Positions 14,179-48,490 of a stretch of DNA of 64,000 nucleotides are shown in pieces. Below the pieces are notes generated by a model. It did not search any database. It was not told where the DNA came from and saw nothing but the letters and a program-made list of their open reading frames with translations. Source of the DNA: Eledone cirrhosa (lineage: Eukaryota); the NCBI GenBank assembly GCA_964016885.1, contig OZ024746.1:48670001-48734000 (forward strand), given 5' to 3'. Position 1 is the first letter of the stretch, and each line of letters opens with the position of its first letter. A program made the translations under genes and the position numbers.

Positions 14179-14865
14179 TGCAAAGTATTATTTAAATTGT
14201 TGGGTTACAACGAGTAAATATTTATAACTGATATAAAAGCACTCAACAGGTATTTGGAGTATATTTACGATATTAAATAAATGGAAACTATATTTATAAA
14301 ACCATATTTATTTCATTATATATATTTCAGGGATATCATATTAAAAATATGGTATGCCTTCATCAGACAAAATACAATATAAACAGTCTTATAAATAGAT
14401 AGATTTGACATACCTTACACTTCAACTTCCATTTAAAAAGTTGATTTGGTAGTGAAAAATGTTAGGGACAGTTATAGAGAAAAAAGAAAGAAAGAAAGAA
14501 AGCGAAGAAAAAGAAGAAATGCATGCAACGAAAAACAGAGAGAGATAGATATAGAGAGATAGATAGAGAGAAGAAATTCATGTAAAGAAAAAACAGAGAG
14601 AGATAGATAGAGAGAGAAAAAACAGAGGGAGATAGATAGAGAGAGAGAGAGAGAGAGAAAAGAGAGAGAGAGAGAGAGAGAAAATAGAGAGAGATAGATA
14701 TAGATAGAGATAGAGAGAGAGAAAAATAGGTAGTTGGGCACCAGTTGAATGACGTATCAATGATATATTTATTTATTTATTTATTTATTTAGTTCTAGTA
14801 TTAAGGTAGAGAGAGATATATGTGGTTAGGAGAGAAAACAGCCGTTACATAGAGAGAAAAGAAAA
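14179..14865 (-). mobile_element. Inverted 3' copy (pLTR plus ~88-nt extension) of PLE B
   Basis: 14725-14865 is the reverse complement of 17364-17505; 14267-14697 matches 8215-8638; hammerhead at 14309-14374; abuts (TA)n. Confidence 0.88.
14309..14374 (-). ncRNA. Type I minimal hammerhead ribozyme (PLE B inverted copy)
   Basis: Same sequence as 8257-8322. Confidence 0.8.
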
Positions 14866-17517
14866 TGACCTGCCAGTCAGATTGATTGCACCATCAAAAT
14901 CTGACCTGGGTAAACTTAGCAAAAACATTCTAGACAGGGTGATACAGCAAATTAAAAACTTGAATTGTTTACCTAACTTGAGCTTGTGGAAGGGAACTGG
15001 AGAGGTTATTGAGTGGTTTAAAGAAATTAAATATAACAATAATAATAAATTTATTCAACTAGATATTGCTAACTATTATTCATCTATTACCCCTAATCTA
15101 CTAAATAAGGCACTAAATTACGCATTCAAACATACAGACCTAACTAGTAATGAAATGCACATTATATTATCGGCTAGGAAAACATTGATAGAATTTAATA
15201 ACCAACTATGGACAGATAGAGATAACAATTTCGACATTACTATGGGATCATCCGACTCAGCTCAGGTAACGGACCTTGTGGGCCTATTTATAATCAATTC
15301 GCTGCATAGGAAAATACCCGGTGTTACCAGAGGATTATATAGAGATGACATGCTTTTACTTATTGAAAATAATAACTCTGAACTAAATAGAAAAAGAAAA
15401 CAAATTACACAATTTTTTAATTACTTTAATCTAAAAATAGAAATTGAGAATAACCATAGAACAGTCAATTTCCTAGATGTAACATTAAATCTCAACACAT
15501 GTCTTCACTATCCATTTCACAAGTTGAACGAAAACTCAAACTATGTCAGTTTTAACTCTAACCACCCCAGATCTGTTAAAAATACTATAGTGAACTCTGT
15601 TCAAAAACGTATCTCTAGAATATCATCTAATAAAAAGATTTTAGACGAAAAAGCCCAGTATTACAATGAAGCGTTAGCTAGAGCAGGATATAGTGATAAA
15701 ATTATGTACATAGATAATAATAGACAAACTAATCAAAATAACAACAATTTTAATTACGGCAACAACTTTAACAACTATAATAGAAAGCATTACAATAATT
15801 CCAAAAGCCAAAAATGAAATAGAACTAGAAATATAATATGGTTTGCCCCCCCTTTCTCACTAAACATTAAAACCCACATCGCTAAACTATTTTTTAATGC
15901 TCTTGATAATCGCTTCCCTAGAACACATAAGTATCACTCAATTTTCAATAGACATACTATAAAATTAACTTACTCATCCACCAAAAATTTAGCACAAAAT
16001 ATTAATAGAATAAATAATAGGAATTTAAAACCTAGCAAAAATACCGATAATAGCCTAAATAATATCCAAGTAAACAAATGTAACTGTAGAGATAGATCTA
16101 AATGTCTGTTAAATAACAATTGCTTAGTTAAAAATATAATATACAACTGTAATGTTAAAACGGACTTAAATTCTTTTAACTATGTTGGTTCCACCTCGAC
16201 AGAATTTAAACTTCGCTATAATAACCACAAGAATTCTTTCACAGATCCAAGCAAAAAATCTTCAACATCACTATCAGGCTTACTCTGGCAACTTAAGCAT
16301 GATAACGTTGGATATTCGACGGCTTGGAATATAGTCTCAAGAGGGATTCCTTTTAATTCATCTTCTGAGACATGTGACCTCTGCGCGGAGGAGATATTCT
16401 TTATACTAAAATCTAAAAATTCCCTTAATTTACGGACAAATTTATTCAGTTGCTGCAGACATAGATTGAACTCAACTTTTAAATATAAATATAAATTTAA
16501 AATGTAGTATATTTACTTATGATTTGTAATTATTTATGAAACTCGCCGATAAATCTTTCGATTTCTTTTTTTTAAACATTCTTCATTAATAATTAAACTA
16601 CCCTAAAAGATGATGCTCCAAATATATCGAATAAATTTTACACTAGATAAACTTCTATAATAAATATAAGACCATCTGTAGATCAAATGGGTATCCTAAA
16701 CTTTTGGAATGATTTCTGCTAGACAGGATTTGGTGAATAATTTTGGTTTTGTTTGCTTTTGATTCTGATGCTTATAATGAACTTGGCAATATATTGTCAA
16801 TTAATTTTGAAGGGTAGATTTCTGTGGTTGATTTGCGGGGCATACTGTGTTTTATTTTTTAATATTTTTAATATTTTTATTGATATATTGATATCTGTTG
16901 TCTATTTTATGCTTGAACGATAATCATGTAGAGTAAAGACAAGAATATTATTGTTAAAATTAATGTAGATTCTATATATATTTGTGTGTATGTACACATA
17001 TATGTATACTAGAATTTTTATAGCACAATGAGAATGTTTTCATGTGAAATAGGAATTTGCAGAGTTGATCACGTAAATTCACATGGATGTCTATAGTATC
17101 GAATCTGGGATAACCTTCTATTTTCTTTTTCTTTTTTCATGAAAGTGCATATATACTTATGTATTTCAATTTTTTTGAAGTTTTTAACTCAGTTCTGATT
17201 ATAAACCTAGGAATTTTAAACTAGACATATTTTTCACAAATTATTGATACGTGTCTCATTCATGAATACTGATATTTACATTATAATACCTAATTCATAC
17301 GAATTGATATTTTAGATTGATGAAACATAATGTTTTAAATCTGCCTCGTTTATCTCTGGATATTTTTCTTTTCTCTCTATGTAACGGCTGTTTCCTCTCC
17401 TAACCACATATATCTCTCTCTACCTTAATACTAGAACTAAATAAATAAATAAATAAATAAATATATCATTGATACGTCATTCAACTGGTGCCCAACTACC
17501 TATTTGTCTCTCTCTCT
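14866..17517 (+). mobile_element. Naiad-like Penelope element 'B', 5'-truncated; RT plus GIY-YIG ORF to 16507 with one in-frame TGA; long AT-rich 3' UTR
   Basis: RLIAPSKSDLGK, FIQLDIANYYSSI, FDITMGSSDSA, GLYRDD, VNFLDVTLNL, SNHP. Past TGA 15815 it reads IIWFAPPFS, CNC...C.L.N.CL, IIYNC..YVGST, CDLC..E, SCCRHR, ending at TAG 16505-16507. Confidence 0.92.
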
Positions 17518-47400: not shown

Positions 47401-47852
47401 ATAACAGTGCAAACCTTGACTATAGTATGCATTAACCAATGTAGAGAAGCAATGCACAGCAAGATTATAATCTGTGTTACTAGGAAAAACAAAAAAAGAT
47501 TCGTTAGAATTTATATGTAATTACGTTGTCACCGTATACTGCATACGGTAAGTGAATTTTGCTATCAGCCTTCATACTATTTGGAATGCCTCAGGTAAAA
47601 CGAAGGGGATATATTATGGGATACGACGCCATCTTCAACTGTTTTTAAACGACGGCTGCATGGAAATCTCGCTGATGATCTGTATATCCAATATGGCATG
47701 AAACTATATTACGGAAATAAATACAGGCAATATATATATATATAGGAAGAGAGATGAAGCGAGTGAGAGAGAGAAGGATATATATATATATATATATATA
47801 TATATATATATATATATATGTGTGTGTGTATGTATATATATATATATATATA

Positions 47853-48490
47853 TATTTATTAAAATAACAGATTAAAGTTTAAGCAAAGAATCGCTGCTTT
47901 CACCCTTAACGTGATCTTCTGAAACTAACAAAGTCAATCTGTAAACGCAGAAGTGGATATTTCAAAAAACGTTGCAACCGGAGGAAGACAGGAAGACGAT
48001 ACTTTGGTTCGTGGAAACGTTCCCTGGCAAAGAATGGGAAAAAACGAATATAATACGTCATAAAAAGGAGCAGTGAAAAACAATTACGCGCAAAGTCAGA
48101 ACCACGTTTATGGTATAAAAGAGGTCGTAGACTAATGTTCTCTTAGGTGGTTCATAGAGACGTTCTCTGGCAATGAACGAAAAAAACGAAAAAACAACGT
48201 CATATGTGGAGCGTGGAGAACAAATGCACGCAAAGACAAAACCACGTAAATGGTATAGCAGAAGTCGTAGACTAAAATTCTAACTAGGAGACCGAATGAA
48301 TCTCCGCTTCAGAGTTAAGAACAAAGTAAATAAATACAATACAGAGGTAAGGGTGAAAGCAGCGATTCTTTGCTTAAACTTTAATCTGTTATTTTAATAA
48401 ATATTTGCTCTACGGTTCTTATATATTTGATATATATTTATCCTTATCGAGCCCTCTTTGGATTTTGGTCTTCAAATTTATTATTATTAC
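47853..48490. mobile_element. Inverted-arm 'AAGGGTGAAAGC' element with internal ~143-bp tandem duplication
   Basis: Minus-strand hammerhead at 47876-47926; plus-strand half ribozyme with extension at 48349-48490; diverged repeats at 48014-48140 and 48157-48281. Confidence 0.8.

Follow-up and report, generated by a model that had tools for sequence, protein, structure and literature searches.

The stretch of Eledone cirrhosa DNA considered here (64,000 nucleotides of contig OZ024746.1, assembly GCA_964016885.1, positions 48,670,001 to 48,734,000 of the forward strand; hereafter the window) is AT-rich, microsatellite-rich animal DNA with 33% G+C and 129 tandem-repeat rows, and the insertions in it are Penelope-like retrotransposons (PLEs), mostly with features of the Hydra clade, that sit in (TA)n runs. 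Their arms end at two recurrent points, a short and a long one, and the subject of this study is the way in which the two ends are paired within an insertion, together with a duplicated bulged hairpin that accompanies them.

A reverse transcriptase (RT) followed by a GIY-YIG endonuclease (EN) within one open reading frame (ORF), the mark of EN+ PLEs, was read directly in ORFs C, D and E, all of which are truncated or broken; Pfam gave weak RVT_1 matches for two of six window pieces, and ORF D has 36 longer relatives at 36-51% identity. Also typical of EN+ PLEs are pseudo-long terminal repeats (pLTRs) in tandem or inverted arrangement with an optional tail, which were found by self-BLAST, an inverted-repeat scan and comparison with relatives, and type I hammerhead ribozymes in the pLTR, whose cores occur in families B, P and G and in relatives and whose cleavage is predicted. 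Families A and K carry variant or half cores read by eye, a hammerhead search of the window found no core in family F, and an Rfam scan of the window at gathering thresholds gave no match.

The Hydra clade of C-terminal EN+ PLEs, to which these insertions are likened, is marked in the accessible part of PMC8557442 by RWK and DKT, a CxCX5C linker with CxxC and CxH around E and N, the lack of CCHH, a hammerhead, a (TA)n target and a short ORF; no RNA signal or end rule is given in that part of the description. The linker, the CxxC and CxH and the absence of CCHH were seen in the translations and alignments of D and C, and insertion into (TA)n was seen in the window. The N-terminal marks RWK and DKT are present in relatives, the N-terminal part being missing from ORFs C and D. 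Element E, with a CX4CXXC linker, points to another clade type, and the non-coding families A, H, K, M, N, P and Q are tied to the Hydra clade by motif and target only. Non-LTR retrozymes, which the accessible text of bioRxiv 10.64898/2026.07.22.740005 defines by tandem units that each hold a complete hammerhead, are a poor match: no two-unit hammerhead array was found in the window, where family Q is a partial tandem.

Short and long ends of the arms

Arm ends in the window were located by self-BLAST and an inverted-repeat scan and then aligned. Short ends recur at fixed points in families B (8216, 31914), A (47856, 24966, 11253, 20826), F (43113, 40572) and K (42988, 63676), and so do long ends in A (48490, 24810 and, as a stub of 7 nt, 11197), B (14180, 32353) and K (42803, 21205); the extension carried by the long arm measures about 40 nt in F, 77 nt in K and H, 88-93 nt in A, B and M, and 143 nt in C. 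All nine head-to-head two-armed loci with both outer ends readable combine one short with one long end (B/D, C, A24810, the B-related palindrome at 31914, H 33543, K 42803, F 43113, A 47856 and M 53839; p=0.002 in a one-sided binomial test, the alternative being that both kinds of end are used independently and equally often), where in the single-copy families C, H and M a long end was called from a TA boundary together with the hairpin motif described below. Four loci were left out of this count as incomplete, namely A20826, an exception in which a short end is paired with an arm cut about 17 nt earlier, A11197, N30282, in which a short end accompanies a longer arm ending away from any TA run, and element E, whose right arm is truncated at about 20338.

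That each insertion has one short-ended arm and one arm with a fixed extension had been the central claim of a first-pass annotation of the window. For two-armed insertions it stands, but "each insertion" was too strong, as at least five inserts in the window are one-armed (F40572, K21068-21205, K63622-63676, P54017 and Q42047) and two of 12 pairs outside the window break the rule. Most of its examples are borne out: the palindrome at 31912 has a short left end at 31914 and a long right end at 32353 with the extension at 32266-32353, the A-family ends at 47856 (short) and 48490 (long) recur in other A copies, the inverted arm at 24810 consists of the extension only (24810-24898) and is joined to a forward short arm that it does not overlap, and the loci at 33545, 42801 and 43109 as well as C (short at 24757, long at 21252) are all of the short-plus-long kind, to which M 53839 is a new addition. 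A further example, at 40788, was dropped because its hammerhead lies on the minus strand at 41030, so that the two pieces meet tail to tail at a central (TA)7 and share one end. One of these two tail-to-tail pieces of family G (40790-41050) carries an internal deletion.

The B arms at 8215 and 14179, which had been presented as the short and long end of one pair, are real ends, yet they are now direct copies of each other (8219-8421 versus 14271-14473, 100% identity) and become the two arms of one insertion around ORF D only when an inversion of about 8.9 kb (approximately 8640-17510) is undone. Both junctions of this inversion are visible and reciprocal; each joins the CT tract of B to element E with a common CT-tract microhomology, and together they split the ORF of E at matching positions with adjoining codons. 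The pairing of the two B ends is therefore correct, but on grounds that the first-pass annotation did not give. The segment was either inverted after the insertion or mis-assembled. Undoing the inversion also makes 9049-11146 an inverted arm of E.

Some inner ends recur as well. The one-armed F copy at 40572-40759 stops exactly at the palindrome centre of the copy at 43113-43527, which suggests a fixed 5' end or a stop 187 nt upstream of the short end, and three K copies start at about the same point (42934, 21075 and 63630), in what resembles, by eye, hammerhead stem II, which suggests that this hairpin stops the RT or serves as a site of joining. A candidate rule that the short-primed arm always reaches further upstream is obeyed by five of five asymmetric window loci and was rejected, being broken by two loci outside the window (L083 and L090).

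A duplicated bulged hairpin in relatives

A scan of metagenome contigs, covering 28 of 64 collection parts and the best 80 of 299 candidates, gave 77 relative loci; the ORF start was found in 41 of these, and 30 had at least 200 nt upstream of the ATG. Between hammerhead and ATG a bulged hairpin of the form GCTC-Y…R-UH-GAGCAC occurs in at least two copies in 19 of the 30, in one copy in seven and in none in four, while two copies were seen in 17 of 3000 shuffled sequences. The layout reads hammerhead, about 50 nt, short site, first hairpin (M1), long site, second hairpin (M2), ATG, with M1 near -105 and M2 near -45 relative to the ATG and a spacing of 41-83 nt (median about 63); extensions in relatives measure about 55-75 nt. 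Among 57 distinct instances, whose selection set no requirement for pairing in the upper stem, the first upper pair covaries and is Watson-Crick in all 56 that were scored (C:G in 39, T:A in 17; shuffled mean 32, in a shuffle that ignores relatedness). The second pair (formed in 40 of 52) and the third (28 of 33) covary too. The register is specific, with 98 of 113 pairs formed in register and 7-25 when it is slid, and the 3' bulge is UU in 42 instances, UC in nine and UA in six.

The ends of the relatives fall at these hairpins. The 3' or inverted copy of each locus was compared with its 5' copy in 32 rows, of which 12 at contig ends and four with inverted matches unrelated to the element end were left out; 14 of the 16 readable ends lie within 8 nt of the start of M1 (six) or M2 (eight), counting one M1 motif read by eye and one M2 alignment that overran by 4 nt. 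TATA or ATAT stands in the 10 nt before 34 of 55 motifs, compared with 432 of 4705 background windows (9%). One locus (L095:1843-2123) is a two-family chimera whose junction lies close to one family's long site and the other's short site; it has two motifs in a row, suggesting template jumping between families at these signals. Elsewhere, 23 pattern matches in viral contigs included no relative, and the exact pattern gave scattered matches in the genomes G002 and G003.

The motif in the window

A descriptor of the motif matched 16 times in the window, against 2.6 in shuffles (maximum 9 over 30). Ten of the matches open an extension (two each in B, K and A, and one each in C, N, H and M), two revealed the further elements P and Q, and four are unexplained. 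M1 opens all nine long extensions of the motif-bearing families at these loci, each short end lies 2-8 nt before M1 at TA-like microhomology, and in Q, whose partial tandem continues past the long end, TA-like letters are followed by a hairpin with the same bulge (z -3.8). An old K-like insert at 50199-50300 has a mutated M1 and was missed by the descriptor.

From one sequencing run (X1), 22,045 contigs aligned to 47848-48498; another (X7) gave 18, too few to use, and the raw-read runs X21 and X22 gave one read and none. Every one of the 15 X1 joints listed, out of 235, jumps from the short arm to the long one, and joints inside the extension make up seven of these 15 and five of 12 further listed rows, of 114; none of those listed has both sides in the extension. 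With few rows listed and the outer ends not seen, this pattern is suggestive only. The X1 depth sums, 1.57-1.77 M for the extension and about 3 M for the upstream 57 nt with its two copies added together, would fit roughly one long arm for every insertion, but they do not represent copy numbers and were not counted.

Pairs in a second animal

A scan of genome contigs yielded 17 loci, several of them on host contigs in one genome bin (G001), and with 20 more stretches around some hammerhead or motif matches 27 stretches were classified. G001 holds 11 same-family head-to-head pairs with both ends readable, ten of which are short with long and one short with short; two long ends were read by eye, and L088, L108 and L110 were left out as nested or truncated. 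Pooled with the window, and including a further pair from another record (L086), short with long is found in 19 of 21 pairs (p=1.1e-4).

The arrangement at A24810 recurs at L090 (10633-10733), where a short arm is joined to an arm that starts inside M1 without overlap, and the arms of L030 likewise do not overlap. Three one-armed copies (L089:7865-10423, L090:3398-3495 and L046:989) have their 5' junction with (TA)n at the short site, as if the short arm had zero length. Several bacterial genome bins (L078-L094, G001) contain animal-type contigs dense in PLE insertions, which are likely host contamination.

Features of the window

The features are collected in Table 1. In element E, a long asparagine-rich in-frame segment in the N-terminal region (17560-18200) resembles the N-rich inserts of rotifer Penelope (PMC3846280, accessible part), and the 3' region of D is unusually long, with 16700-17364 resembling a decayed antisense reading frame. 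A SINE-like repeat of about 230 nt is abundant at 75-90% identity (894-1119, 1833-2034, 6297-6538, 13700-13935 and about 12 more); it forms one head-to-head pair at 59689-59834 and has no tie to TA runs. Two copies of another TA-flanked element end lie at 39248-39303 and 41065-41157, one of them with a short local duplication and inversion.

Table 1. Features of the Penelope-like insertions (window coordinates; M1 and M2, first and second hairpin).
Position	Strand	Feature
8216..8640	-	Family B arm, short end, which is the 3' terminus of element B/D; core of hammerhead at 8314, cleavage predicted after 8265
14180..14865	-	Family B arm, long end; extension 14180-14266; hammerhead 14366
14239..14260	-	M1 at start of B extension
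14810..16507	+	ORF D: 5'-truncated RT and GIY-YIG, CxCX5C linker, one in-frame stop; body of B/D insertion
8640..17510	.	Inverted (or mis-assembled) segment; breakpoints in B CT tract and element E ORF
21252..22366	-	Element C inverted arm, long end 21252, extension 143 nt; M1 21325-21390
22324..24757	+	Element C arm with the ORF (RT and GIY-YIG, broken); ends short at 24757
24810..24966	.	Family A: inverted extension-only long arm 24810-24898 (M1 24846-24893) and non-overlapping forward short arm
11197..11253	.	Family A short arm after 7-nt inverted stub matching long end (weak)
20826..20900	.	Family A: short inverted arm and forward arm cut about 17 nt before short end (exception)
21068..21205	+	Family K, one-armed, long end; M1 21135-21160
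30282..30400	.	Family N: inverted arm short, forward arm longer, with M1 30352-30369; long end away from any TA run, coordinate approximate
31914..32353	.	B-related palindrome: left arm short, right long; extension 32266-32353; M1 32272-32292
33543..33727	.	Family H: inverted arm short, forward long; M1 33652-33672
40572..40759	-	Family F, one-armed, short end; inner end at centre of 43300 palindrome
42047..42735	-	Family Q, partial tandem: long end 42047, M1 42126-42151; upstream copy shows template past long end
42566..42658	-	Bulged hairpin resembling M2 (lower stem UCUC/GAGA, 3' bulge of 2 nt) directly past Q long-end position; z -3.8
42803..42988	.	Family K palindrome: left arm long (M1 42848-42873), right short
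43113..43527	.	Family F palindrome: left short, right long; tail of 40 nt; neither motif nor hammerhead found
47856..48490	.	Family A: inverted arm 47856-48347 short, forward arm 48348-48490 long; M1 48407-48454
53839..54008	.	Family M palindrome: left arm long (M1 53899-53926), right short
54017..54290	-	Family P, one-armed: hammerhead 54178, M1 54062-54084, long end 54017
63622..63676	+	Family K, one-armed, short end

A model for the two ends

The two fixed sites at which the arms end lie just upstream of the two copies of the duplicated bulged hairpin, one site before each copy. To judge from these sequences, the insertions probably arise when reverse transcription is primed on each side of a nicked (TA)n by one of two enzyme copies, both predicted to be bound to a single RNA, one at each hairpin. 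The first-pass annotation had arrived at two defined priming points per RNA, one for each side of the (TA)n break, and this is still the best reading, as it matches in vitro work on a Poseidon-clade PLE (PMC11167929, accessible part) and the non-overlapping arms; that both primings use the same RNA is presumed, as are protein binding to M1 and M2 and dimerisation. Arms without overlap (A24810, L090 10633-10733 and L030) cannot be copies of each other and therefore require two primings, which contradicts self-priming as a general mechanism, and ends that lie just 5' of a motif which the arm lacks accord with initiation inside the RNA, at a point set by a bound hairpin.

According to this two-hairpin model, the protein would bind M1 and M2, and each bound copy would start a few nucleotides 5' of its own hairpin, so that the long arm alone would contain a copy of M1 and neither arm one of M2. 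A single RNA would serve for both primings and so force one short and one long end; one end of each kind per insertion is what would be expected of two enzyme copies on an RNA with two hairpins. The long complementary DNA (cDNA) would stop at or inside M1, giving an extension-only arm, or displace the other cDNA, and the two cDNA 3' ends would join head to head through microhomology or, in perfect palindromes, an RNA hairpin; should one side fail, a one-armed insert would result. Taken over from the Poseidon work are the cutting and extension of both strands, internal initiation at the tail boundaries and the predicted dimer (PMC11167929).

Several points weigh against this model. The window descriptor was widened after the extensions had been seen, by allowing an A:U outer pair and loops of up to 85 nt; with it no motif was found for family F and its 40-nt tail, yet F obeys the short-plus-long rule. 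M2 is not visible for most window families, the M1 hairpins of the window fold weakly on their own (z -0.2 to -0.65 in A, B, H and M, +0.25 in K), and the motif pairing is absent from the minimum-energy fold for H and C. Among the relatives, motif counts are inflated by relatedness, 11 of 30 have fewer than two motifs by the strict pattern, and two (L010, L011) end away from motif starts. One pair on a long contig is short with short (L082) and one on a 2.1-kb contig long with long (L086), and one-armed inserts are common, many of them in G001. In vitro, moreover, the start site was the same on both strands, in work that, as far as its accessible text goes, did not test pairing (PMC11167929).

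Two RNA molecules with the same hairpin-set starts could be used instead, in an asymmetric complex that always takes M2 for one strand and M1 for the other. Such a scheme is unlikely, even if it would suit the frequent overlap of arms upstream of the short site, the presence of the ORF on either arm (the short one in C and D, the long one in L083 and L090), the differences between arms in C (7%) and K (9%) and the existence of the two same-type pairs. It needs an extra source of asymmetry; in vitro starts do not differ between strands (PMC11167929); arms are mostly more alike within than between loci (98.5% versus 87% for the B-related palindrome, 99% versus 94% for F); and extension-only arms stop at or inside M1 as if blocked, with three of 12 such joints at 48455-48456, although these numbers are small.

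A shade less probable again is endonuclease trimming of a DNA intermediate, in which the motif would be read on the cDNA and GIY-YIG would cut the adjoining TA-like site. The tail has been ascribed to EN-mediated resolution (PMC8557442), the Drosophila tail is noted to be needed for EN recognition (PMC11167929), the sites resemble the preferred target in being TA-like, and the sequence of the lower stem is conserved. A TA-like site is, however, equally expected for primer annealing, RT starts were mapped directly onto both tail boundaries in the Poseidon element (PMC11167929), and trimming does not in itself give one cut of each kind.

It is improbable that a single cDNA started from the long site folds back to serve as its own template, with the copy stopping at TA microhomology to give the short end. 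Perfect palindromes centred on natural hairpins (K, F and the B-related palindrome) are in keeping with this, self-priming has been proposed for such palindromes (PMC3846280), and it may still make some of them; but fold-back can yield neither the non-overlapping arms nor arms with a short end that contain much more sequence than their long-ended partners (C, B/D, A47856), and it leaves the ends before M1 in one-armed inserts unexplained. The remaining idea that the two ends are RNA 3' ends made by the hammerhead cut or by termination sites is very improbable, for although hammerheads lie close upstream of the ends, the predicted cut falls about 50 nt upstream of the B short end and of the P M1 and defines neither end, the marking motif lies downstream of each end, and the hammerhead is dispensable in the Poseidon element, whose hammerhead mutants left the product unchanged (PMC11167929).

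Initiation at two hairpins of one RNA is the preferred reading. Whether it extends to Hydra-clade PLEs at large, as programmed twin priming in which the hairpin pair would position two protomers on one transcript, a double-strand (TA)n break would be extended at both ends at once, the tail would be the spacer between the hairpins and any RNA with the pair would be written into DNA from both sides, is an evenly balanced matter on this sequence evidence.

Relation to known systems

Twin priming in L1, reportedly described by Ostertag and Kazazian in 2001, lets two target ends prime on one RNA to give an inverted piece. There the first site is the poly(A) tail and the second is opportunistic, whereas both priming sites here are fixed and internal. 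In telomerase, an RNA stem bound by the RT sets the template boundary and with it where copying occurs. The likeness is an analogy only: a monomer model of one relative (P0016, pLDDT 89.9) retrieved general RT folds in a fold search, including TERT, DRT2, retron and group II intron RTs, and this search neither singles out TERT nor shows an RNA-binding site.

Among PLEs, the closest descriptions, in the accessible parts of PMC3846280 and PMC8557442, are of a unit with an inverted 5'-truncated copy and a one-sided tail of 30-40 bp, which shares inverted arms, an optional extension at one end, palindromic junctions and microsatellite targets with the insertions described here. The motif-bearing window families have longer extensions, of 77-143 nt, and the relatives ones of about 55-75 nt, the pairing has been counted (19/21), and the ends are tied to a duplicated hairpin absent from that description. 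In vitro, the Poseidon-clade element PAc of Anolis has both strands of an AT-rich target nicked and extended from two adjacent internal RT start sites, which lie downstream of the hammerhead and bound the tail, and a dimer is predicted (PMC11167929). Given the published one-sided tail and two internal start sites, the asymmetry itself was already known. The PAc sites lie in the ORF near an AC-rich stem-loop and have no target homology, unlike those here, which lie in the 5' untranslated region, each before its own motif copy and with TA microhomology; the accessible text of PMC11167929 makes no proposal that the two sites are paired on one RNA. No duplicated hairpin at PLE ends and no PLE twin-priming model was found in the open full-text literature, subscription papers and Repbase notes being outside its scope, and the same holds for the accessible parts of PMC4209133, bioRxiv 10.64898/2026.07.22.740005 and PMC13282606; the supplement of PMC8557442 contains neither "hairpin" nor "stem-loop". 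What appears to be new, in that we did not find it in published work within the literature covered, is the duplicated hairpin signal at both ends.

Implications

The origin of the inverted arms and one-sided tails of PLEs is a long-standing open question that is named as such in PMC8557442. A small duplicated RNA motif predicts both ends in many families and in at least two animals, and it offers annotators a route to element boundaries, orientation and non-coding derivatives. It also suggests a way in which a telomerase-related RT could close a break on both sides with no dedicated step for the second strand, and, if the model is true, the hairpin pair would be a portable signal for two-ended insertion.

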